Assembly: GCA_948467605.1 (NCBI GenBank) | Contig: CAOKET010000002.1 | Coordinates: 14,410-78,409, forward strand | Direction of reading: 5' to 3' | DNA from: an uncultured Mycoplasmatota bacterium | GTDB taxonomy: Bacteria > Bacillota_I > Bacilli_A > RF39 > UBA660 | DNA: 64,000 bases | Shown: positions 10,996 to 38,365 of the stretch, one piece after another | Position numbering within the stretch: the first letter of the stretch is position 1 | How the letters are laid out: each line of letters begins with the position of its first letter | Notes under the pieces: model-generated | What the model saw: only the letters and a program-made list of their open reading frames with translations | Told to the model about the DNA's origin: nothing | Databases searched by the model: none | Position numbers and translations under genes: made by a program

Positions 10996-11205
10996 ATTAT
11001 CACTCCTTTTCCCTATATTTTTACATATTTTTTATAATATGTCAATTACACTTTACAATTTTTTATATAAGGATTCATTACTTTAATACATTAAATTTTA
11101 TGATAGTTTATGAATTTTAGTGACAGAATTTCTATATTCTCTAGCATGTATGTTTTTACTTCAAAATTTCTTTATTAATATATTATCAACCCCATAAATC
11201 CATAT

Positions 11206-16946: not shown

Positions 16947-17612
16947 TTAAAATTCATTTTCCAAAATATGATTTAGAAACTCCACAATATAAATTTCCCT
17001 ACCTTTAAATAAAACTCTGTTAACATTCTGATTATTTATAAGTAAAGTACCTTTTAGCATATCATATTCTACACAACAATAATTATCTATCTTAAGTAAT
17101 TTATCTTTTAGTTTTATTTCAGGTATATTATAAATCATTGCAAGTTCACTTCCTATGTTCCTTTCTTTTGCTCTAAATAAATGTCCACAATATAAACATA
17201 AGTGAGTTCTATGTGGTGTATAGGCAAATTGCCCATTATCAGAGTGGTAGCGACCACAATGACTGCATTTTACTATTTCTAATGGTATATTATTTAGTTT
17301 AGCTAGCATTATTCCTCCAAAATCTTTATAAGTTAATAAAGAATTATCATATTCTAAAACTCCACTAAATTCATTATTATTTATTATTATTTTAGGTATA
17401 ACACTTTCTAAAACGTTTTCATATCTAATATTTATATCTTTGATTTCATTTTGCTTAATATTTAATCTATTATCGTATATTTCTTTATTACTCCAAAGAC
17501 ATTCATCAAGTTTGTTTCCCAATTTATCATAAGCAAAAGATTTATGAACAGTACAATAATATTTAGTTGTTCCTTGTCTTGATTTTCCAATATATTCTAT
17601 ATTACATTTCAT
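16947..17612 (-). CDS. Hypothetical protein with a CxxC-x19-CxxC zinc-ribbon
   Basis: 221 aa. CSHCGRYH...HRTHLCLYCGH zinc-ribbon-like pattern. No family recognised. Lies inside the defense-island block. Confidence 0.45.
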   Translation of the reverse strand: MKCNIEYIGKSRQGTTKYYCTVHKSFAYDKLGNKLDECLWSNKEIYDNRLNIKQNEIKDINIRYENVLESVIPKIIINNNEFSGVLEYDNSLLTYKDFGGIMLAKLNNIPLEIVKCSHCGRYHSDNGQFAYTPHRTHLCLYCGHLFRAKERNIGSELAMIYNIPEIKLKDKLLKIDNYCCVEYDMLKGTLLINNQNVNRVLFKGREIYIVEFLNHILENEF

Positions 17613-19819: not shown

Positions 19820-21793
19820 CTAGTCTTGGTTATTTATCTTATTTATTTCTTCATTTATATTTTTATAATCATATATATTTTTTGTTTCAATAAATTTACT
19901 AGCATCTTCTTTAGTCTGCATAAGAATTTTGTAATCATTTTTAAGTGATGCGATTTTAAAAATCATATCTCCATGTTGTTTTACACCAAACAAATCACCA
20001 TGACCCCTTAGTTTAAAATCGTTTTCACTTATTTCAAATCCATCATTTGTTTTTGTCATTACTTTTAGTCTTTCATGTTCACTGTTACTTATTAAAATAC
20101 AAATTCCTTCCTTTTGTCCTCTTCCTACTCTACCTCTTAACTGATGAAGGGTTGATAGTCCAAATCTAGATGCATCAAATATAACCATAGTTGTAGCATT
20201 TGGTATATCTATTCCTACTTCTATAACTGTTGTGCTTATAAGAATATTTATTTCATTTTCTTTGAATAGGTTCATTATATTTTCTTTGTCTTTATTTTTC
20301 ATTTTTCCATGTATTATATCTATATTATAACTTTTAAATGCTTTTTGTAGTTTTTCTTTTAAATCCATTACACTTTCCATATTGCTAGAGTCACTTTCTT
20401 CTATTAGTGGTGCGACTACAAATATTTGATTATTCTGTTTCAGTTGTTCATACATTATAGATAGTACATCTTTAATCTCATCATATTTTTTTAAATATGT
20501 TATTACCTCTTTTCTACCTTTAGGAAGTGTTTTTATACTAGTTATATCCATATCTTTATATATCGTTAATGCATATGTTCTTGGGATTGGTGTTGCACTC
20601 ATATATAATACATCTGGTTTTTGACCTTTATTTCTTAATATATGTCTTTGATTAACTCCAAATCTATGTTGTTCATCTGTTATTACTAGTCCTAAATTAT
20701 TAAATTCTATTTGTTCATTTAATAGTGCATGCGTTCCAATTATTAAATCTATTTCATTATTTATAAGTTTATTATATATTTCTTCTTTTTTAGATTTTGT
20801 GATTGTCCCTGTTAGAAGTTCGACTCTTAGTGGTAATATTTTTTTTATATTATTGTAGTGTTGATTAGCAAGTATTTCTGTTGGAACCATTAGTGCACTC
20901 TGATAATTTGCTTTAGCCATTAGATAACATGCGGCAAATGCTACTATTGTCTTACCGCTTCCAACATCACCTTGTATAAGTCTATTCATTCTCTTAGGAC
21001 TATTTAGATCTAAAATTATATCGTCAATTGCCTTTATTTGGTCTTCTGTTAATTCAAATGGTATTAAACTTATAAAATCATCTTTCCATTTCTCATTTAT
21101 ATCTCGTATAAAATATTCATTTTCTTCCTTATTTTGTTCTCTTAATTTCTCCATTTTTAACATAAATATAAATAATTCTTCATATTTTAATCTTATTAAT
21201 GCCTTTTTTAGATTTGATTCGTCTTTTGGATTATGTATTTCTATTAGACTTTCATCTTTATCTATAAATGAGTAGTTATCTTTTAAATAACTTGGTATAT
21301 AGTCCTCTACTTCCACACTTTTTAGTGCTTGATTCACATAGTTATTTATCATCTTACTACTTATACCAGTTGTGCAATGATATATACTCTCTATTTGGTT
21401 ATCTAAATTTATATCCAACTTTATATCACTTGCAGTTATTGTATTTCTTTTTTGGTCATATTTTCCTAGTATTATTATTTGATTATTTATTGTCAAATGG
21501 GGTTTTAAAAATGCCCTATTAAATATTACAACATTTATGAGTTTTCCGTCTATTTCTACTTTAAATCTCAAACTATTCATTTTTCTTTTTATGTATGATA
21601 TAGTCGGTGTACTAATTACTACTCCCTTTACTACAATTTTATTAAAGTCGCTATGTTCCATTAAAGATTTAGTTTCAATTTTATTATATCTATACGGATA
21701 ATAGTTTATTAAATCATTAATATTAAATATACCTAGTTTATTTAGTAGTTTTATATTCTTTGGTCCTAAACCTTTTATTTCTTGTAATTCCAT
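19820..21793 (-). CDS. recG: ATP-dependent DNA helicase RecG
   Basis: N-terminal wedge/OB region. Helicase motifs: I GDVGSGKT, II DEQHRFG, VI QLRGRVGRG. About 657 aa from the MELQEIK start. Confidence 0.95.
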   Translation of the reverse strand: MELQEIKGLGPKNIKLLNKLGIFNINDLINYYPYRYNKIETKSLMEHSDFNKIVVKGVVISTPTISYIKRKMNSLRFKVEIDGKLINVVIFNRAFLKPHLTINNQIIILGKYDQKRNTITASDIKLDINLDNQIESIYHCTTGISSKMINNYVNQALKSVEVEDYIPSYLKDNYSFIDKDESLIEIHNPKDESNLKKALIRLKYEELFIFMLKMEKLREQNKEENEYFIRDINEKWKDDFISLIPFELTEDQIKAIDDIILDLNSPKRMNRLIQGDVGSGKTIVAFAACYLMAKANYQSALMVPTEILANQHYNNIKKILPLRVELLTGTITKSKKEEIYNKLINNEIDLIIGTHALLNEQIEFNNLGLVITDEQHRFGVNQRHILRNKGQKPDVLYMSATPIPRTYALTIYKDMDITSIKTLPKGRKEVITYLKKYDEIKDVLSIMYEQLKQNNQIFVVAPLIEESDSSNMESVMDLKEKLQKAFKSYNIDIIHGKMKNKDKENIMNLFKENEINILISTTVIEVGIDIPNATTMVIFDASRFGLSTLHQLRGRVGRGQKEGICILISNSEHERLKVMTKTNDGFEISENDFKLRGHGDLFGVKQHGDMIFKIASLKNDYKILMQTKEDASKFIETKNIYDYKNINEEINKINNQD

Positions 21794-21884
21794 AATTACC
21801 ACCTATATATATTCTAACATATATTTGGTGATAAAAATTTTTAAAATCTGTTATATTTTAATCAATATATACTATAAATAAAAT

Positions 21885-22373
21885 TTATTCTGTTAATGTT
21901 CTTACTGTTTGCTTGTAATATGTTTTTATTTTTACTTTTCTATTACCAATAGCATTTTTATATATTTGTCTTAAGCAATTTGATAGTTCTATTATATTTG
22001 GTAATGGTTTATTTTGATAAATTCCATCAATTAATATTTGTCTTTCAATAATTTGACATTCTATCTTTTCTAATTCGTATATTTTATCATTTACTTCAAT
22101 AATTGGCTTTTTAAACATTTCGATACATGCGTCTACTGCAATTTCACAGTTTATTTTCCTATCATTAGTAATGTTATTTTTTATCATAGACATTAATAGG
22201 CATGCTGCTTCATCAAAACTATCTATTTTTCTTGACATGTTTTCTTCTACAAAATTATATAGTTCTTTATAAATTTTTAAAATACTTAAACACTCATTTT
22301 TATTTGATGTTTTTACTCCACTTTTTTTAATTGATGATTGTATACATTTTATTACTTTTATTAGGCTTTTCAT
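21885..22373 (-). CDS. Hypothetical protein (162 aa)
   Basis: ORF only. No recognised motif. Confidence 0.35.
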   Translation of the reverse strand: MKSLIKVIKCIQSSIKKSGVKTSNKNECLSILKIYKELYNFVEENMSRKIDSFDEAACLLMSMIKNNITNDRKINCEIAVDACIEMFKKPIIEVNDKIYELEKIECQIIERQILIDGIYQNKPLPNIIELSNCLRQIYKNAIGNRKVKIKTYYKQTVRTLTE

Positions 22374-22480
22374 AGCAGATATTCATCTCCTTTGAGTTAT
22401 TATTATTTTAATTCTTTTTATATATAATGTAAATAGTTTAAACTTTATTAAAATTATTTTATTTTTTTATCGTTTTTGTG

Positions 22481-22509
22481 TTGACAAATTCATATTGTTG
22501 AGTTAGTAT
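22481..22509 (+). promoter_or_regulatory. Putative sigma-A promoter (-35 TTGACA, 17-nt spacer, -10 TAGTAT)
   Basis: TTGACA at 22481-22486 and TAGTAT at 22504-22509. Lies between two minus-strand genes with no plus-strand CDS downstream. Confidence 0.35.
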
Positions 22510-22516
22510 ATACATC

Positions 22517-22616
22517 ACCAATTCGGTTTAGGCGAATTGGTGCTAGTATCACACTAGCCAACCCCTTTTTATTCTTTTTTGAGGTTGTTTCAGGGGGAGC
22601 AACCTCTTTTTTATAT
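22517..22616 (+). ncRNA. Candidate ~100-nt small RNA with three hairpins and a terminal intrinsic terminator
   Basis: Hairpins: CACCAATTCG-gtttagg-CGAATTGGTG; GCTAGT-atcaca-ACTAGC followed by a U-run; GAGGTTG-tttcagggggagc-AACCTC followed by TTTTTT. A CCCC (22562) / GGGG (22593) alternative pairing is possible. Confidence 0.35.
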
Positions 22617-22618
22617 GC

Positions 22619-22645
22619 AAAAAGGAAGCAATTGAAAACGCTTCC
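22619..22645 (-). terminator. Intrinsic terminator of the pyruvate:ferredoxin oxidoreductase gene
   Basis: Hairpin GGAAGC-(10 nt)-GCTTCC immediately after the stop, followed by a U-run on the minus strand. Confidence 0.55.
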
Positions 22646-25600
22646 TTATTTTTGAGACATTTCTTTATATATATTATGTCTTTTCATAGCGATTTCCTTG
22701 TTTTTTTCTAATAACTCTTTAGCATTATCTTGATTTACTAGTTTTAACATGCTGTATCTTGTTTCTAGATTTAAAAATTCTTCATATTTTTCATAATCTG
22801 GTTCTTTGTTATAAAGTTTTAGTTTGTTTTCACTAGGATTGTACTTAAATATTGGCAAGTATCCACATTCTCCTGCTAGTTTTTGATGTTCTAATGCATT
22901 TTTCATACCGCCTTTTATTCCATGTGATATACATGGTGCATATGCGATTATAATTGAAGGACCATCATGTTTTGCTGCCTCTTCAAATATATTTACAACC
23001 GACTCTTTGTTATACCCTAAACTTACCTGCGCTACAAAGACATTTTCATGAGACATAGCGATTTTGGCTAGGTCTTTTTTTACTGTTTTTTTGCCAGTTT
23101 CTGTGAATGATGCGACGCTTCCTGTTCTACTAGATTTTGATGATTGGCCTCCTGTATTTGAATATACCTCTGTATCTAATACAAGTATATTTATATTTTC
23201 GTTACTTTCTAATATATGATCTATTCCAGCATAACCAATATCATAAGCCCAGCCATCTCCACCTATACACCAAACAGTTGGCTTTATAAGATATTCTTTA
23301 TATGATTCTAATTCTTTAAATGTTTTTAGATCTTTGGATAATTTATTTGTTATTTCCATATCTTCAAAATTATCTATATATTCTTTATAAATTGAACTAT
23401 CTTTTATACTATTATTTTTTAACTTTTCTTCAATTATCTTTTTTACCCTTTGTCTCATTATTTTATGTGCAGTGTATATTCCATATCCGACTTCTGCATT
23501 ATCTTCAAACAAAGAATTTATCCATGGTACACTATATGGAGTACTTGGAAGACTTGCACCATATATTGATGAACATCCAGTTGCATTTGCAATTATCAAA
23601 TTATTTCCAAATAATTGAGTAAGGATTTTTAAATAAGGGGTTTCTCCACATCCACTACATGAGCCTGGATATTTAAATTTAGGTGGTTGAAACTGACTAT
23701 ATTTTACATTATTTCTTTTTTCTATATCTTTTTGTTTTACTTTGTTAAATAAGTAATCATCTTGTTCTTTTTGTTTTAGTTCATGTATATTAACCATCTC
23801 TAGGGCCTTCTTACCCTTCATTCCTGGACAGGTTTGAACACAGTGAGTACATCCAGTACAATCGTTATAAGAGACTCCTATCATAAAGTTATAATCTTTA
23901 AGATCTGGTCCAATCGCTTTTAAACTGTCATCTTTTACATTTTTGTTTTCTTCTTCATCAAGTAAAAATGGTCTTATTACCGCATGAGGACACACAAATG
24001 AGCATTGATTACATTGAATACAATTTTCCTTTATCCATACTGGTACATATTCACTTATTTTTCTTTTTTCAAACACCGTATTTCCGCCCTGGTATGTGCC
24101 ATCTTCATGATCTATAAATGCTGATACTGGTAAGTCATTTCCCTTCATTTTATTAATACTATCTATTATTATATCGTCTGTGTATTGTTTATTATTATCT
24201 TTAGATGTTAGAACAATATCTTTGACTTCTCTAATACAATTTAGGGCTTGATCTATTACCCGATTATTTGCCTTTACTATCTCTTCACCCTTATTAAAAA
24301 ACTCTTCATATACTTTTTCTTTAATACTTGATATGTATTCTTTTTCATCTATTTGGTTTAAATATTTTAATATTATTGTCTCCATAATTGTACTTATTTT
24401 GTTACCTAATCCATTGCTTGATGATAATGAATAAGCATCTGCGATATAAAATCTTATATTTTTCTTTTTTATTATTTCTTTTACTTTAGATGGCATTAAA
24501 CTTAAGCATTCTTCATCACTAAGACTTGAATTTAATATAAAAATCCCATTATCTTCAATATAGTCTAACATATCAAACTGACTTAAATAACTTGCCTTTG
24601 TACATACAATTAATTTTGCCTTATTAACATAGTATGTTGAATGTATTTTATTATCACTAATTCTTAAATGGCATCTAGTAACACCTCCTGATTTTTTACT
24701 GTCATATTGGAAGTATCCTTGAACGAACTTAGGTGTTTTTTCTCCAATAATTTTCATGATGTTTTTAGATGCGCTTACCATACCATCACTACCATATCCA
24801 TATATTAACATTTCTATACTATTATGGGGTATATTAAAGTTTTTATCTACATTTATGCTTCTGTTAGTAACATCATCTACTATTCCAACTGTAAAATTAT
24901 TAAATCTTTCTTTTGAATCTAAAAAATCATAAACTGCTTTGATATCTCTAGGTGAAGTATCTTTGCTTGATATTCCGTATCTTCCACCTATAATCTCTAT
25001 CTTCTTATCTTTAAACGTATTTACTACATCTAGATATAGTGGTTCTCCACTGCTTCCGCTTTCTTTTGTCCTGTCTAATACCGCTATTTGTTTTACTGAT
25101 TCTGGTAATACTTTAATTAAATGTCTTGTACTAAATGGTCTATAAAGATGCACTTCGACTAGCCCAACTTTTTCCCCTGTTTTATTTAGATAGTCTATTG
25201 TTTCTTTTATAGTTTCGCAAACTGATCCCATCGCTATTATCACTTTAGTTGCGTATTTATCTCCATAATAATTAAATATATGATAATCTTCACCAGTTAT
25301 CTTGTTTATATTATCCATATATTCTTCAACTATATCTGGTAAGTTGTCATAGTATTTATTTCTTACCTCTAGATTTTGAAAATAAACATCATCATTTTGC
25401 GCGGTTCCACGTGTTATTTTTTTACCTGGAATAAGGGCTTTTTGTCTAAATAAATTTAGGGATTTTTCATCTATTAAATCCTTTATTTTGTCTAGGTCTA
25501 TCATTTTTATTTTTTGAAGTTCGTGACTAGTTCTAAATCCATCAAATGCATTTATAAATGGTAGGCTTCCCTTTAATGCTGATAGATAACTAACAGGTGT

Positions 25601-26053
25601 TAAATCCATTACTTGTTGTGGTGAAGATGAAAATAATATTGCTACCCCTGTTTGTCTTACTGCATATATGTCTTGGTGATCACAAAAAATTGATAGGGCA
25701 TGGGTTGCGATTGATCTTGCCGCTACATTTATTACTCCTGGTAACATTTCCCCTGCTATTTTATAAAGATTTGGAATCATTAATAGCAATCCTTGGCTTG
25801 CAGTATAAGTACTTGATAAAACACCTGATTGAAGTGATCCATGTACTAATGCAATTGCACCTGCTTCACTTTGCATTTCTATTACTTTTACTTTATCATT
25901 AAAAAAATTAACCTCATTATTACCAGCCCATTTATCAATATGTTCAGCCATAGTAGATGCGGGTGTTATAGGATATATTCCAGCAAGTTCTGTCATCTTA
26001 TATGATATATATGCACATGCATGATTTCCATCCATAATACGGTATTTATTCAT
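22646..26053 (-). CDS. nifJ: Pyruvate:ferredoxin (flavodoxin) oxidoreductase
   Basis: 1135 aa. N-terminal PFOR domain I (YPITPAS). Internal 2x[4Fe-4S] ferredoxin motifs (CIQCNQCSFVCPH, CTGCTHCVQTCP). C-terminal TPP-binding GGDGW. Confidence 0.95.
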   Translation of the reverse strand: MNKYRIMDGNHACAYISYKMTELAGIYPITPASTMAEHIDKWAGNNEVNFFNDKVKVIEMQSEAGAIALVHGSLQSGVLSSTYTASQGLLLMIPNLYKIAGEMLPGVINVAARSIATHALSIFCDHQDIYAVRQTGVAILFSSSPQQVMDLTPVSYLSALKGSLPFINAFDGFRTSHELQKIKMIDLDKIKDLIDEKSLNLFRQKALIPGKKITRGTAQNDDVYFQNLEVRNKYYDNLPDIVEEYMDNINKITGEDYHIFNYYGDKYATKVIIAMGSVCETIKETIDYLNKTGEKVGLVEVHLYRPFSTRHLIKVLPESVKQIAVLDRTKESGSSGEPLYLDVVNTFKDKKIEIIGGRYGISSKDTSPRDIKAVYDFLDSKERFNNFTVGIVDDVTNRSINVDKNFNIPHNSIEMLIYGYGSDGMVSASKNIMKIIGEKTPKFVQGYFQYDSKKSGGVTRCHLRISDNKIHSTYYVNKAKLIVCTKASYLSQFDMLDYIEDNGIFILNSSLSDEECLSLMPSKVKEIIKKKNIRFYIADAYSLSSSNGLGNKISTIMETIILKYLNQIDEKEYISSIKEKVYEEFFNKGEEIVKANNRVIDQALNCIREVKDIVLTSKDNNKQYTDDIIIDSINKMKGNDLPVSAFIDHEDGTYQGGNTVFEKRKISEYVPVWIKENCIQCNQCSFVCPHAVIRPFLLDEEENKNVKDDSLKAIGPDLKDYNFMIGVSYNDCTGCTHCVQTCPGMKGKKALEMVNIHELKQKEQDDYLFNKVKQKDIEKRNNVKYSQFQPPKFKYPGSCSGCGETPYLKILTQLFGNNLIIANATGCSSIYGASLPSTPYSVPWINSLFEDNAEVGYGIYTAHKIMRQRVKKIIEEKLKNNSIKDSSIYKEYIDNFEDMEITNKLSKDLKTFKELESYKEYLIKPTVWCIGGDGWAYDIGYAGIDHILESNENINILVLDTEVYSNTGGQSSKSSRTGSVASFTETGKKTVKKDLAKIAMSHENVFVAQVSLGYNKESVVNIFEEAAKHDGPSIIIAYAPCISHGIKGGMKNALEHQKLAGECGYLPIFKYNPSENKLKLYNKEPDYEKYEEFLNLETRYSMLKLVNQDNAKELLEKNKEIAMKRHNIYKEMSQK

Positions 26054-26174: not shown

Positions 26175-26945
26175 ATGGTTAATAAAATGTCAAATAATTT
26201 TTCTGAGTTTTTACAACATACATCGTTTGATTACTTCTCTAAAGAAAAAGATGAAATACTATCACTTATAAAAGATGAATTAGATGGCATTCTTAAGCAA
26301 ATAAGTATGCTCATTAAATCTTATAATTCTACTGTTGAACTTAAAAAAATTGAGAAAAAGTTTAATAGTATTCTTGATGGAACAAATCCATATATTGATA
26401 ATTTAATTAGAAATAAATATAATTTGTGTTATCAGGAATTATTCTCAAAAATAATAAGAGATGGGGATTTTGCTTTAAAGAGTAATAGATATGAGGCTAG
26501 TTCTGAAAGGCTTAGTGTACTTGAATCAACCCTTGCTAACTATAAATGTAATATAGATAAATCTAAAGAGGCTATTACTAATAAAATAGAAGAAAAAAAC
26601 AGTAATTTTGTTAAAGATTTTATAATTAATAATATATTAGCATGCCTAGAAGATACATTTTATGATATACCATGTAAACAAAATGATGATGCTTATAATG
26701 AAATAGAAAAATACTTAAATAAAACTACTGATATAATTATAGGTGGATTACAGGATATATGTGTGTCTAGTATGGATGATATGAATAATGATGTTTTATC
26801 TTATTTGGAGAATAAAATTAAATTTGAAAAAGGTTATACTAATAACTTAACATTATCTCAACTTTTACAGGCTAAAGAGGCGTTTATTGGTAGTAATACG
26901 AAAAGGCCACAAAAAAAAGGAAATAGGAAAAATATTGCCGCTTAA
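26175..26945 (+). CDS. Hypothetical soluble protein (256 aa), acidic and helical
   Basis: Strong RBS AGGAGG upstream. No recognised motif. Confidence 0.5.
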   Translation: MVNKMSNNFSEFLQHTSFDYFSKEKDEILSLIKDELDGILKQISMLIKSYNSTVELKKIEKKFNSILDGTNPYIDNLIRNKYNLCYQELFSKIIRDGDFALKSNRYEASSERLSVLESTLANYKCNIDKSKEAITNKIEEKNSNFVKDFIINNILACLEDTFYDIPCKQNDDAYNEIEKYLNKTTDIIIGGLQDICVSSMDDMNNDVLSYLENKIKFEKGYTNNLTLSQLLQAKEAFIGSNTKRPQKKGNRKNIAA

Positions 26946-29200: not shown

Positions 29201-30960
29201 TTATTTTTTCTTTTTTCTTCTTTTATGCCAAATGACAGGCAAAATATAAATGGATATATATTTATAAATGGTAAACAGTATCTACATATTGATTTTGGTA
29301 AACTAATAAATAGTAAAGCATACCAAAACAATATAAATAATATAGGTAATAAAAGGTTATATTTTCTTTTGTTTATGAGTATTAATACTGAAAAAAGTAG
29401 CATAAATAAAGGAAAGGCACCTCTTGTTCTTAAATCAAATAATACACTTTTTAATCCAAAATTCACAATATTGTCTACAATACTATTTAATTTAGTTTCT
29501 TTATACATAATAGTAGTTTGTTTTAAACAATAGTTATATGCATTGGGTTCCCATGAATATTTATATAGATAAGTAAAATACTCATTATTGTCATTTTCTA
29601 TTTTCCATAAAATATTACTCAAATCAAATAAAGATCTCATATAAAATATTGGTTTTTTTATAAACAAACTTAAGTTAATACCAATTAGACCACTATAATT
29701 AAATGTTTTACTTTTTCCTCCAGATAAATAAAATAATTTTTCATCATTTATTCTTGCTAATGCATCTCCATCATTCTTTTTAAAACTAGTTGCCATATAT
29801 TCTATAGGTAAATATTGTTCTAAATATTCTTTTTCAATGTCACTAAACTCATATCCAGAATTAGCAAAAGCACCTATTTGATAAATTGGAACAGTATATG
29901 GAACGCTCTTAAAATATGTATCAGAATGCAAAATATTAAATCCAATGTAGTTTATAATAGAATATGTACTTACAAAACCTATTACTACAATTCCAATATA
30001 TATCAATTCAAAGTATTGCTTTTTCTTTAAAATAATTATGAATAAACTTAGGAATATGAGTATTAATAAGTAAAGTGTTCCATGTCTAAATAAAATCATA
30101 ATTATTGAAAATATTACCATATTTATAACTATTTTTTTTGTAAATTTTTTTATTGTAAAGTACTCTACCATTGTTAAAATAAAAATACAAAAGCCTAGTG
30201 AAAATAATGTATCTTTTAAAATATACCTTAATTGATCAAATCCTACTATTGTAAATATATTTATACAAAGGAATAAAATCAAAATATTTTTATTTTTTGT
30301 TTGTCGTTCTAAAATTTCAAGAGAATAATTACAAAAGTAAAGATAGAGTATAAAATTTAATATAATTACTAAATATGTATTATTAAATACAATTTTACAA
30401 AAATGAATTAGCATTCCAAACCCAAACGTATGCCAATTGCTCCACCAGCCATCATTACCTAAGTGCCATATGTCTGGAAAATCAACATCATAAAAACCAG
30501 TTGATGTACTTGCAATAAAAAGCAAACTAATAATAGTAATTATTGACATTATTATTACTCTAATTTTTTTATTGTTAGTACTTTCTTTAAATTCATATGA
30601 AAAAATTGATACAAATATATAGAATAAAGATAAAAATAAAGATGATAAAAAAATAGTTTTAAACATTATATTAAATAAAGTTATGTTGTTTGAGAATTTA
30701 TTTAAGCATGAAGTGATAGGTAACATTATAAAAAATAATACACATAATGATATTGACATTACTACTATTTTTCTATTTAATTTTATATTCATAATAAAAG
30801 ACCTTTTTATAACTAAAAAAAGTTCAAATATAGCAATAATAAGTAATGGCAAAAATATTAATTCATTAGATATATTATGTAAATTAAATAAACAAAAAAC
30901 GATTGAAATAACATTAATTATTAATAATATATAATAAAAACTTTTTTTCACTACTATCAC
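29197..30960 (-). CDS. Polytopic membrane protein with a C-terminal extracytoplasmic domain (GT-C/YfhO-like topology; function unknown)
   Basis: 587 aa. Multiple N-terminal TM helices, a roughly 170-aa soluble segment, then further TM helices. It converges on the preceding gene with a 4-bp overlap. Confidence 0.4.
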   Translation of the reverse strand: MIVVKKSFYYILLIINVISIVFCLFNLHNISNELIFLPLLIIAIFELFLVIKRSFIMNIKLNRKIVVMSISLCVLFFIMLPITSCLNKFSNNITLFNIMFKTIFLSSLFLSLFYIFVSIFSYEFKESTNNKKIRVIIMSIITIISLLFIASTSTGFYDVDFPDIWHLGNDGWWSNWHTFGFGMLIHFCKIVFNNTYLVIILNFILYLYFCNYSLEILERQTKNKNILILFLCINIFTIVGFDQLRYILKDTLFSLGFCIFILTMVEYFTIKKFTKKIVINMVIFSIIMILFRHGTLYLLILIFLSLFIIILKKKQYFELIYIGIVVIGFVSTYSIINYIGFNILHSDTYFKSVPYTVPIYQIGAFANSGYEFSDIEKEYLEQYLPIEYMATSFKKNDGDALARINDEKLFYLSGGKSKTFNYSGLIGINLSLFIKKPIFYMRSLFDLSNILWKIENDNNEYFTYLYKYSWEPNAYNYCLKQTTIMYKETKLNSIVDNIVNFGLKSVLFDLRTRGAFPLFMLLFSVLILINKRKYNLLLPILFILFWYALLFISLPKSICRYCLPFINIYPFIFCLSFGIKEEKRKNN

Positions 30961-34461: not shown

Positions 34462-34977
34462 TTATTTTCTAGTTAAAGTTTTAACTGGTCCAGTATATTC
34501 TATTTTTCCAGTTAATTCCCAACCATCATTTAAATACATTTTAATAACCTCATCACTTTTAAAAGTAACAATCTTATTAAGGATAGTTTCTACACTTCCA
34601 TCTTTATAATGTGCAATACAACATGGTTCTATTCTAACCAATTCATGTTGATGTTCTCCTTCTATATCACATTCAAATCTAGTATCATAGTTAAGAACTC
34701 CTCCAGTTATTACATAATCGTTATCCAAGTATTTTTGAATATTTTCATCACTTGCCCAAACCACACAATTTTCTTTTTCACTTCCATCTGCATTAAGTAC
34801 TGTCTTAACTAACTCATGTTTATGTGCCTTTTTTATATCACATTCAGGAGTAATGCTGCTACTATTATTAGCATTTTCTATTTGCGCTGCAATTGATCCA
34901 CCTTCTATACCTGCCAAAATTCCTATAGAACACATTGCTAAATATTTTTTTGCTTTTTCCCTTAATCTACTTTCCAT
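34462..34977 (-). CDS. Secreted/lipo-protein with two internally duplicated Cys-containing domains
   Basis: Signal peptide. The repeats ECDIKKAHKHELVKTVL... and ECDIEGEHQHELVRIEPCC... are visible by eye. Confidence 0.45.
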   Translation of the reverse strand: MESRLREKAKKYLAMCSIGILAGIEGGSIAAQIENANNSSSITPECDIKKAHKHELVKTVLNADGSEKENCVVWASDENIQKYLDNDYVITGGVLNYDTRFECDIEGEHQHELVRIEPCCIAHYKDGSVETILNKIVTFKSDEVIKMYLNDGWELTGKIEYTGPVKTLTRK

Positions 34978-37102: not shown

Positions 37103-38365
37103 TTAACTATATGTCTTCATTTTAATATTTCTTCCTGTTAATTTATTTATAAATCTTAATTTCATAGTTTGATATGTATAATTAGTAACTGGTATATCAT
37201 TATCTCTTAAGTAATCAATAAACCCTTGTTTTTCTTCCTTAGTTATTAACCTCTCTTCACCATTTACTAATACACGATTTTGAGCATTTAACTCTTTTTT
37301 TTCGTTAAACGGTGCTTTTTTTATAAAATGGTAACTCTTCGATAAAACAACTCTTAAATTAAGTATTTGCGATTCTTTTTCTAGTGATTTTGATGCAGAT
37401 GTAACAAAGTATTTTGGATCTGTTTTTGCAATCATATAATAATCTAATATATCAAATTCTCTTATATAATCTTGCTCATCTACTCCACTTTCAATCATTT
37501 TTTCCATTTGAAGTGCCAATGCTGCATATTTTTCACTTTCTAAAGTTTTATTTCTATTTAATAATTCTATATATTCATTGTGCATTTCTAAGCTATATTT
37601 TTTGATTCTTAATAAAATAATCTCAATTTCTTTTTCTTCTATATTATGAGTTTTACGATATGTATATATACTGTTACCGCTTTTGATTATATTCTCTATC
37701 AACTCTATTTCTTCTTGTGGTTTTTTTGGTTCTTGTGGTTTTTTTGGTTCTTGGGTTTTTATATTTGAAGGTCTATTTGTGTTAAGCATGCGTTCATGAA
37801 ATTCTATATATTTTTCTAATTTATTTAATAAAAATATTCTTTTTGATTCATCAAAGTCAGTTAATATATGTTCTTTTAATATTCGTATGCTTACTCTTTT
37901 TTCAAAATAATACTGAAAAACTTTTATTTCATCTTCCTCATACAGTCTATTTATTAGTTTATTATATATTTTATCAAATCCTAAAGTTTGTTTTCTTAAT
38001 CCTATATCCGATTCTTTTTCTTCTAATAAGTGCTTATGTTTTTTTCTTTCCTCATCTGATGCATATGATCTTAAATATTTTGTAATTATAGTACTATGCA
38101 TATGATTGATTGTTTCTAATTCATATTTCATTACAATTTGCATTACATCCTCATTATTTTTTACTGCTTCTAGGTATTCATCAAATATTTGCTTTAATCT
38201 CAGACCTTCAATATCCTTTTTTAAACTTCTAAGAATTTCCAATACACTTTTATAATTTTTATTTGAAATATCTTCTTCATACTTTGATTTTATTTCATCA
38301 GACGAGGTTGATTTTAGTAGTTCTTCATATTTTTTTAATAAATCTATTTTTGTATATCCTTTCAT
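37103..38365 (-). CDS. Hypothetical protein with an internal PKKPQE tandem repeat
   Basis: An 18-bp tandem repeat at 37724-37759 encodes EPKKPQEPKKPQ. Otherwise helical, with no family recognised. Confidence 0.45.
   Translation of the reverse strand: MKGYTKIDLLKKYEELLKSTSSDEIKSKYEEDISNKNYKSVLEILRSLKKDIEGLRLKQIFDEYLEAVKNNEDVMQIVMKYELETINHMHSTIITKYLRSYASDEERKKHKHLLEEKESDIGLRKQTLGFDKIYNKLINRLYEEDEIKVFQYYFEKRVSIRILKEHILTDFDESKRIFLLNKLEKYIEFHERMLNTNRPSNIKTQEPKKPQEPKKPQEEIELIENIIKSGNSIYTYRKTHNIEEKEIEIILLRIKKYSLEMHNEYIELLNRNKTLESEKYAALALQMEKMIESGVDEQDYIREFDILDYYMIAKTDPKYFVTSASKSLEKESQILNLRVVLSKSYHFIKKAPFNEKKELNAQNRVLVNGEERLITKEEKQGFIDYLRDNDIPVTNYTYQTMKLRFINKLTGRNIKMKTYS

Follow-up and report, generated by a model that had tools for sequence, protein, structure and literature searches.

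Between two minus-strand genes in an AT-rich stretch of bacterial DNA lie a plus-strand promoter motif, a series of hairpins and a terminator-like sequence, which raises the question of whether this intergenic region is an independent small RNA (sRNA) gene, as a preliminary description had proposed, and, if so, what its transcript might do. The window (the whole 64-kb stretch of DNA that was analysed) has a GC content of ∼25%, compared with a local GC of 0.42 in the element (the 22515-22612 match described below), and its minus strand holds almost all of the genes. The element is flanked on its upstream side by an open reading frame (ORF) of 162 amino acids, beyond which lies recG, and on its other side by the gene for pyruvate:ferredoxin oxidoreductase (PFOR); the genes around it encode RecG, DapF, PFOR and ORFs with no family assignment. 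Exact copies of the 162-residue protein were found only in metagenome contigs, the intergenic regions of which are 99.5–100% identical to that of the window. The closest one-per-species representatives are metagenome-assembled genomes (MAGs) labelled 'uncultured Bacilli bacterium', 'Tenericutes' or 'Acholeplasmatales', from sources that include human (Hadza), deer and rabbit guts, and the identity of their PFOR to the window protein is 76% in one and 47–55% in the others. We take the source to be a low-GC gut lineage of uncultured Bacilli, probably of RF39 type. The shorter intergenic region of one locus, L002, reflects an assembly gap of N's and not a deletion. The features of the locus are as follows:

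19820-21802, minus strand: RecG, beyond the 162-amino-acid ORF
21885-22373, minus strand: ORF of 162 amino acids, no Pfam family, flanking the element on its upstream side
22481-22486, plus strand: −35 hexamer TTGACA (sequence, pattern scan and fixed distance in homologues)
22504-22509, plus strand: −10 hexamer TAGTAT, after a 17-nt spacer (sequence and pattern scan)
22516-22612, plus strand: predicted mature sRNA of ∼96 nt (covariance model R1)
22516-22542, plus strand: P1, 5′ hairpin of 10 bp, CACCAAUUCG-GUUUAGG-CGAAUUGGUG, with arms that read CACCAATTCG/CGAATTGGTG as DNA; structure kept, loop variable
22542-22558, plus strand: P2, 6-bp hairpin GCUAGU-AUCAC-ACUAGC (DNA GCTAGT-ATCAC-ACTAGC); sequence invariant
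22559-22578, plus strand: single-stranded C/U-rich 20-mer CAACCCCUUUUUAUUCUUUU, invariant, putative seed or binding site
after 22558, plus strand: tract CCAACCCCTTTTTATTCTTTTTT directly 3′ of P2
22562-22565, plus strand: CCCC tract in the 20-mer, the single C-run of the ∼96-nt RNA
22581-22606, plus strand: P3, hairpin GAGGUUG...CAACCUC with CAGGGGG in its apical loop (G-run at 22593-22597)
22607-22612, plus strand: U6 tract finishing the intrinsic terminator (terminator scan); a U-run follows P3 in most homologues
22619-22645, minus strand: PFOR's own terminator, GGAAGC-N10-GCUUCC then U5 (sequence and minus-strand fold), not part of the sRNA
22646-26053, minus strand: PFOR, 1135 amino acids, the other flanking gene

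The promoter of the preliminary description, TTGACA-17-TAGTAT, was recovered on the plus strand at 22481-22509 both in the sequence and by a pattern scan. In DNA of 25% GC such promoter-like sites are not above chance (13 compared with 10.4 expected), and the significance of this one derives from its conservation and not from the match by itself. Of 90 distinct upstream regions from homologues, 88 have TTGAC at −37 (±1), counted from the first C of P1; a box with the consensus TAnTAT (T 0.89, A 0.90, T 0.74, A 0.84 and T 0.87 at −14 to −9) lies 17 nt past TTGAC, and an A/T-rich tract precedes the promoter. From the position of the promoter in the homologues we infer a transcription start site at ∼A22517, 7–8 nt past the −10 hexamer. 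The 10-bp hairpin, the second hairpin and the GAGGTTG...CAACCTC stem with its T6 terminator were all found as described, and no plus-strand ORF of at least 20 amino acids was detected in the element. One detail of that account needs revision: the U-run behind the second hairpin is present but, rather than being a terminator tail, it lies within the invariant single-stranded 20-mer. A five-codon ORF in P2 (GUG-CUA-GUA-UCA-CAC-UAG) was also considered and rejected because its start codon is not conserved, the junction reading GGUCG, GGAG or GGCG in many homologues.

A terminator scan of 21700-23000 returned three overlapping calls against 0.2 expected, all of which correspond to the P3 site and are on the plus strand only. 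Transcription would be started at ∼22517 by a near-consensus σ70 promoter, and P3 with U6 would end the RNA at ∼22612. Covariance model R1 (see below) matches 22515-22612 with 107.2 bits (E 5.6e-19), which is the sole copy in the window; two tandem copies are present on some contigs (L156 and L212). Comparative evidence supports the proposal of a plus-strand sRNA transcription unit between two minus-strand genes, and the view that 22481-22612 is an independent gene for a predicted sRNA of ∼96 nt, the transcription of which we infer from sequence.

The preliminary description had itself raised the possibility that the hairpins are merely the bidirectional terminator of PFOR. In such a reading there would be no separate gene: the hairpins would belong to the terminator region or 3′ UTR of PFOR, or give rise to antisense RNA into PFOR. 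A convergent PFOR does lie directly downstream of the element in the window, as it does at 27 of the 94 homologous loci. PFOR, however, has its own hairpin and U5 right behind its stop codon and so needs none of the sRNA hairpins to terminate, while P3, read on the minus strand, runs into A's and not U's, and no minus-strand terminator was called there. The element lacks PFOR as its downstream gene in 67 of the 94 loci and, in L011, is 2.5 kb from PFOR with genes in between. Its promoter is conserved on the plus strand, its wobble pairs are compatible solely with that strand, and P3 with U6, a canonical terminator, would keep transcription from running on into PFOR. The hypothesis is largely refuted by these observations, and we find it scarcely credible. 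The commonest arrangement combines this convergent PFOR with a divergent recG upstream (37 of 80 loci), a layout indicating that the sRNA is neither a leader nor a PFOR terminator. The other downstream genes belong to 48 unrelated clusters, and at 73 of the 94 loci the first gene downstream lies on the other strand. The test for a cis-regulatory leader or riboswitch failed, as the 94 loci contain no co-oriented downstream gene of consistent function.

Conservation and fold of the predicted RNA

Comparison with homologous loci shows the architecture, strand, structure, conservation, distribution and synteny of the predicted sRNA gene. The homologue set, drawn from metagenomes of gut and rumen and from MAGs labelled 'Bacilli', comprises at least 96 distinct sequences, across which a comparative alignment of the intergenic region, one of the checks proposed in the preliminary description, revealed that promoter, hairpins and terminator are conserved as a unit. 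Scanning metagenome contigs for the exact 20-mer gave at least 120 stretches, nearly all with the same architecture; as this sample was chosen by the exact 20-mer, the invariance of that sequence rests on 12 independently found homologues and the window. Searches with blastn and nhmmer at PFOR-anchored loci recovered 22478-22625 in eight species-level genomes (L011, L016, L017, L021, L042, L058, L059 and L066), with blastn identities of 79–98% (83–89% over alignments of 80–165 nt) and E values down to 1.9e-50; the PFOR of these genomes is ∼54–76% identical to that of the window. The eight-genome alignment keeps the −35 and −10 boxes, the P1 stem, all of P2 and the 20-mer (CAACCCCTTTTTATTCTTTT), and varies in the promoter spacer, the P1 loop and the P3 stem. 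In a sample unbiased with respect to the RNA sequence, consisting of seven loci on contigs of RecG homologues 56–73% identical to the window RecG, the sRNA was found upstream of recG in four complete and two contig-truncated cases, and the 37-nt core formed by P2 and the 20-mer is identical in all four of the complete ones. The 20-mer is the same in the eight PFOR-anchored and the four RecG-anchored homologues, which were found without using it, and in some of the lineages with an identical core the neighbouring proteins (RecG and PFOR) are just 54–59% identical. The predicted sRNA element is conserved far above its neighbouring genes. One weak covariance-model match, L015 (21 bits), was rejected as not homologous.

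The plus-strand RNA is predicted to fold into P1-P2-P3 with the C/U-rich tract unpaired, at −34.2 kcal/mol (z = −4.9; 0 of 200 shuffles were as good). RNAalifold likewise predicted P1, P2 and P3 from a MAFFT alignment of 89 homologues, from which covariance model R1 was built and used to re-align the 96 distinct sequences. In the R1 alignment 99.6% of cells are standard pairs and double changes occur in 14 of 21 pairs, values that 0 of 500 shuffles reach; because it was fitted to the model, this alignment leans towards the structure, and the MAFFT-based RNAalifold result agrees with it. When the partners were slid by 1–3 columns as a control, pairing fell to 15–49%.

In P1 double (compensatory) changes, each of them rare, are seen in six of the seven modelled pairs, and 99.5% of cells are paired. 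The compensatory variants include ACCUAUUC/GAAUAGGU, AUCAAUUC/GAAUUGAU and ACCAAUCC/GGAUUGG, and the P1 of L233 has G-C where other homologues have G-U; wobbles in the family comprise ten A-U to G-U and three U-A to U-G changes. Five of the six P2 pairs never vary, while the closing G-C becomes G-U in 10 of 96 sequences, and P2 is identical in all of the sequence-unbiased homologues and also in phage contigs L091-L095. All six modelled stem pairs of P3 covary, with 19–44 double changes per pair. The G-U wobbles, present in 10+10+3+36 sequences, would turn into A-C mismatches if the RNA were read from the minus strand, which identifies the plus strand as the functional one. In one subclade P3 lacks a U-run and termination is assigned to a fourth hairpin with a U-run, and P3 with its CAGGGGG loop is still kept, which indicates that P3 is more than a terminator. 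In nested ensembles of the 96 homologues the mean unpaired probability of the 20-mer is 0.86–0.99 at each position.

Copies of the 20-mer in phage contigs

IMG/VR viral contigs also contain the core. P2 and the 20-mer start 1 nt past a tRNA-like ...ACCA end in L091-L095 and in metagenome contig L192, and in L092 and L094 there is an Rfam tRNA match with a large insertion. Around the L091-L095 module extends ∼1 kb of non-coding sequence, crowded with degenerate tRNA-like structures and bounded by a late transcription regulator and an HNH/terminase module. With default settings ARAGORN detected no tRNA or tmRNA in the phage loci, and with relaxed settings it made only doubtful tRNA-like calls in the non-coding region. 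The low-GC contigs L097-L100 keep just the 20-mer, L098 additionally having a variant P2, with another small hairpin on its 5′ side and another hairpin or terminator on its 3′ side. The versions in L097, L099 and L100 combine unrelated small hairpins with promoters and terminators of their own; in L099 and L100 the promoters are of the extended −10 type and the units adjoin a sigma-factor gene or a ParB-like nuclease gene. The R1 scores of the phage versions are 23–46 bits, and the G-rich loop is absent from all of them. BLAST searches of 50,697 GenBank phages returned no match to the sRNA or to the phage non-coding region.

A core of 20–37 bp shared by hosts and viruses could be explained as a phage att site, integration occurring in the 3′ half of the sRNA gene as it does in tRNA and tmRNA genes. 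This would fit the identical core of 37 bp (L091-L095) or 20 bp (L097-L100) common to host loci and IMG/VR contigs, its position directly behind the tRNA-like ...CCA end in L091-L095, and the closeness of several viral matches to contig ends. The genes nearest to the core, however, were assigned with PHROGs to a late transcription regulator or sigma factor, HNH endonuclease, terminase and ParB-like nuclease, and not to an integrase, while more than 120 host loci, all with the host-type P3, include no hybrid junction resembling attL or attR. The idea was rejected on account of these two absences. In addition, the core of L099 and L100 is inside its own promoter-hairpin-terminator unit, and the host element is under constraint at the RNA level, as seen in its G-U wobbles and compensatory pairs; integration at the core is, in our judgement, very improbable.

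Phages carry the 20-mer on other scaffolds, presumably as a means of reproducing what the host RNA does. A fuller version of this idea, which is tentative and less likely than not, holds that the element is a near-universal host sRNA, that the 20-nt strand is its functional unit, captured independently by unrelated phages and perhaps released from some transcripts by tRNA processing, that the copies impersonate the riboregulator or titrate its partner, and that the G-rich P3 loop of the host RNA acts as a lid which the phage versions do without. In this scheme the phage copies would stand where the late or packaging region begins. The reuse of the 20 nt on at least three phage scaffolds amounts to a natural 'seed-swap' experiment that pinpoints the functional nucleotides, and points to possible phage mimicry of a host regulatory RNA, which has rarely been documented outside enterobacteria. 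On the 100-kb phage contig L096 a perfect reverse complement of the 20-mer constitutes the 5′ UTR and Shine-Dalgarno (SD) sequence of a 137-amino-acid ORF; the chance expectation for perfect complements of this type is, by a rough estimate, up to ∼0.5, and the putative target at the ribosome-binding site (RBS) of this gene is only a lead.

Candidate roles of the invariant strand

A replaceable scaffold around an exposed, invariant 20-mer is the signature of a trans-acting single-stranded effector. By analogy with RsaE/RoxS, the most likely reading, to which we give an even chance, is that the 20-mer is a trans-acting anti-SD-like seed. This reading is consistent with the prediction that the 20-mer is unpaired in all 96 homologues and with its exact retention on the swapped phage scaffolds. 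The 20-mer, which contains CCCCUUUUU, would base-pair with ribosome-binding regions rich in G (AAAAAGGGG-type) in several mRNAs, P1, constrained in structure only, would serve as a 5′ protective or scaffold element, and a transient pseudoknot may cover the CCCC tract with the G-run of the P3 loop. An RNAduplex scan of 64 start regions revealed a few GGGG-type SDs complementary to the seed. Several window genes possess such a sequence, for example UAAAAAGGGG upstream of 37103-38365, at a frequency not above chance, and seed complements in the window are at the level expected by chance for purine-rich SDs; the genes behind these SDs encode, according to Pfam, proteins with no family, a DUF5131 protein or a thioredoxin/ferredoxin-like protein. 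Among sites with at least 11 nt of complementarity in ∼1.2 Mb of related loci no gene family recurs.

Several observations sit less comfortably with a seed. The 37 invariant nucleotides, which include both strands of P2, exceed the needs of a pairing seed of 7–12 nt, and such invariance at ∼55% protein identity fits recognition by a protein or through a tertiary fold at least as well. The RNA has a single C-run where RsaE/RoxS have at least two; a promoter so close to consensus, in a gene that nearly the whole clade carries, has a housekeeping rather than a stress-specific look; and a simple seed model does not account for the conserved CAGGGGG loop.

The main rival, possible but on the doubtful side, is that the RNA binds a protein or the ribosome. 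P2 and the pyrimidine-rich 20-mer, perhaps with the CAGGGGG loop, would then be a sequence-specific platform in a protein-binding or ribonucleoprotein (RNP)-forming RNA with a housekeeping or sponge function, the partner being a conserved protein, for instance a KH/S1/CSD-type single-strand binder, or the ribosome, and the phage copies would titrate or recruit the same factor. Binding of this kind better explains three properties of the element: the frozen 37 nt, contiguous through the P2 strands and loop and unchanged where RecG and PFOR have diverged, beside which P1 and P3 vary freely; the strong near-consensus promoter with its upstream A/T tract, together with the near-universal location beside recG; and the absence of a perfect 20-nt complement, other than the phage RBS, among ∼140 occurrences of the 20-mer in genome, metagenome and viral sequences. 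The retention of P3 and its loop where P3 is not the terminator is also in keeping with a platform. Synteny, however, offers no candidate protein, as the neighbours are recG, PFOR and variable genes, and L097, L099 and L100 lack both P2 and the G-rich loop and keep the 20-mer alone, which reduces the minimal functional unit to a short single strand, as is typical of a pairing seed.

A further possibility concerns the relationship between the CCCC tract and the G-run. GGGG is present 3′ of the 20-mer, in the apical region of P3, in 82 of 96 homologues, and the preliminary description had suggested that pairing of CCCC with GGGG could form a mutually exclusive structure. Such an alternative is disfavoured, as replacing P3 costs on average +7.6 kcal/mol (range 1.6–14.6) relative to P1-P2-P3; the pairing, if formed, would instead be a pseudoknot with the P3 loop. 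In a sensor RNA, CCCC(U) and (A)GGGG of the P3 loop would form an H-type pseudoknot around the U-rich linker, with a ligand or temperature controlling either termination at P3 or exposure of the single strand. The invariance of CCCC beside a frequent GGGG and a P3 stem that is free to vary would be expected of such a device, as would the retention of P3 with its G-rich loop in the subclade that has a separate terminator. Against this, the two partners are both invariant and so provide no covariation to score, the G-run is missing with CCCC kept in 14 of 96 sequences, for example in the CUAGU subclade (L042, L058, L066 and L142), and it is likewise missing in every phage version. In view also of the cost of the nested alternative and of the 73 loci of 94 that have no co-oriented downstream gene to regulate, a sensor function appears improbable.

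Whether seed or platform, the predicted sRNA is likely a central regulator or RNP component of the organisms that carry it, because it is present in nearly every member examined, has a near-consensus promoter and displays a 37-nt invariance. The carrier lineage has reduced genomes, is common in human and animal guts, and is represented in the searched collections solely by MAGs and metagenome contigs.

Comparison with known RNA families and systems

The Rfam cmscan proposed as a check in the preliminary description (Rfam 15, 4227 models) gave no matches at the gathering score in the window, no match overlapping the element in 20 homologous loci and none over the module in the phage loci. At a permissive E value the weak matches to RsaE (17.5 bits) and sbrA (24.8 bits) were far below threshold. 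The best match of the 451-nt region was RsaE (RF01820; E = 1.9), the gathering score of which is 79 bits, and RsaE was not matched at E≤1 in any of the 20 homologous loci. ARAGORN detected no tRNA or tmRNA genes in the window, and its 64 kb contain no CRISPR repeat array, next to which a tracrRNA or solitary repeat would be expected. A full-text literature search returned no relevant mention of the core sequences, of sRNAs from RF39 or of phage seed mimics; a 50-genome survey of non-coding RNAs (PMC11109978) does not mention the sRNA context, and no paper was found that describes an sRNA from RF39-type bacteria. The element belongs to a previously uncatalogued family of predicted stand-alone C-rich sRNAs, with three traits that are unusual: the rRNA-like invariance of the 37-nt core, the conserved G-rich terminator loop and the recurrent capture of the 20-mer by phages. 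With the alignment and covariance model R1, members of the family could be annotated in metagenomes and the family itself entered in Rfam.

Small RNAs that are linked to tRNAs, such as 3′ external transcribed spacers, are released by tRNA processing. The module of phage contigs L091-L095 resembles these in starting 1 nt past ...ACCA, a position from which RNase P/Z-type processing could free it. The window gene, in contrast, has its own promoter and a plain hairpin, P1, with no tRNA in the window.

The AgvB and AsxR RNAs of EHEC prophages provide examples of phage-encoded regulatory sRNAs and anti-sRNAs (PMC4104026; reviewed in PMC12197685). The phage versions described here are similar in appearing to be RNA genes that extend from promoter to terminator and in carrying a key single strand tied to a host riboregulatory network. 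AgvB, however, mimics the target and acts as a sponge, whereas the phage RNAs here contain the host 20-mer in the same sense and would mimic the regulator. They also differ from AgvB and AsxR in their occurrence on at least three unrelated scaffolds, which include a fusion to tRNA-like structures.

The closest parallel is with RsaE/RoxS of Staphylococcus and Bacillus. Like these RNAs, the element is a predicted independent gene of ∼100 nt in Bacilli with its own promoter and Rho-independent terminator, and its C-rich region is highly conserved. It also shares with RsaE the succession of a hairpin, a single-stranded CCCCUUU-type tract and a terminator, and in the Rfam alignment CAACCCCUUUUUA is placed opposite CAUCCCCUUUGUU of the model. 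The C-rich motifs of RsaE, which are single-stranded, act as anti-SD-like seeds and bind to SD or G-rich sites in mRNAs (PMC6158497). The differences are, however, substantial. RsaE/RoxS contain duplicated C-rich (UCCC/CCCC) motifs, whereas there is one C-run here and the loops of P1 and P2 lack any; the 5′ domain consists of P1 and the invariant P2, without a C-rich loop; and the terminator loop carries a conserved G-run. RsaE/RoxS are under the control of Rex (and of ResD/SrrA), but no Rex-box-like site is present at the promoter here: the Rex operator TTGTGAA-N6-TTCACAA, with up to three mismatches, has no match within 2.8 kb of the sRNA gene, the nearest Rex-like sites being at 11039-11058 and 29449-29468, and the matches across the window are at the level of chance. 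The element also differs in belonging to MAGs of uncultured low-GC gut 'Bacilli' and in having phage-borne copies. Membership of the RsaE/RoxS family fails on the model score (17.5 compared with 79 bits), the number of C-rich motifs and the absence of a Rex-like operator. The sRNA may thus work like RsaE, yet should be filed as a family apart from it.

Variant and tandem forms of the sRNA gene

In a subclade of homologues (L109, L128, L129, L144, L146, L155, L162, L171, L186, L196, L202, L206 and L210) the sequence 3' of the invariant 20-mer, the putative seed, includes a fourth hairpin of the predicted sRNA. Here P3, the 3' hairpin, retains its CAGGGGG loop and is followed by CUUAGAU(A/U)AAAA instead of a U-run, the terminator being supplied by the additional hairpin and its own U-run, located ∼15 nt further downstream. 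Some metagenome contigs harbour tandem copies of the gene, spaced 300-800 nt apart, in which the core (P2 and the 20-mer) is identical while the P1 loop and P3 stem differ:

L156:104-207 and 894-996, two tandem copies
L212:1-78 and 415-512, two tandem copies

The promoter region and family-less ORFs

The region upstream of the sRNA gene displays the following features:

Window 21885-22373, minus strand, 162-aa ORF between recG and the sRNA gene
L152, ∼50 nt upstream of its sRNA, seed complement AAAAAGGGGTT(G) overlapping the -35 box (AAAAAGGGGTTGACA)
L119, promoter spacer, seed complement AAAAAGGGGTT(G)
L002:2545-2585, metagenome scaffold, run of N's in place of the promoter and P1

The 162-aa ORF was assigned to no Pfam family, and L011/L229, the closest relative, is alone in having a homologue (151-153 aa) at the same position. 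The sRNA promoter immediately follows recG, with no intervening ORF, in most other genomes. Pfam likewise returned no family for sizeable window ORFs at 26175-26945 (plus strand), 37103-38365, 34462-34977 and 16947-17612 (all minus strand), the latter three of which are preceded by Shine-Dalgarno sequences of an unusual GGGG(G) type. The presence of the seed complement within the gene's own promoter region in two homologues, L152 and L119, is probably incidental. A natural deletion of the promoter and P1 in L002 was rejected, as the N's represent an assembly gap at a hairpin-rich region.

Related sequences in viral contigs

The viral and phage loci contain a complement of the 20-mer and a non-coding region:

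L096:10238-10262, minus strand, perfect 20-nt reverse complement of the 20-mer in a 100-kb viral contig
L094:7380-8590 and L091:5630-6716, ∼1-kb phage non-coding region, also in L092, L093, L095 and L192

The L096 site constitutes the 5' UTR and Shine-Dalgarno sequence (AAAAGAAUAAAAAGGGGUUGAAAUUAUG) of a 137-aa ORF assigned to phrog_11543, a family that carries no functional annotation. The match may be fortuitous, or the host RNA may truly target this site.

The non-coding region, flanked by late transcription regulator and HNH/terminase genes, is crowded with degenerate tRNA-like structures, which ARAGORN called only at relaxed thresholds; a single Rfam tRNA match (149 nt) contains a large insertion. 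At its 3' end the P2 and 20-mer module is followed by a conserved segment, ACUGAUGAUAU...GUUAUCAU, and then a terminator. The region may correspond to a long phage transcript that undergoes processing.
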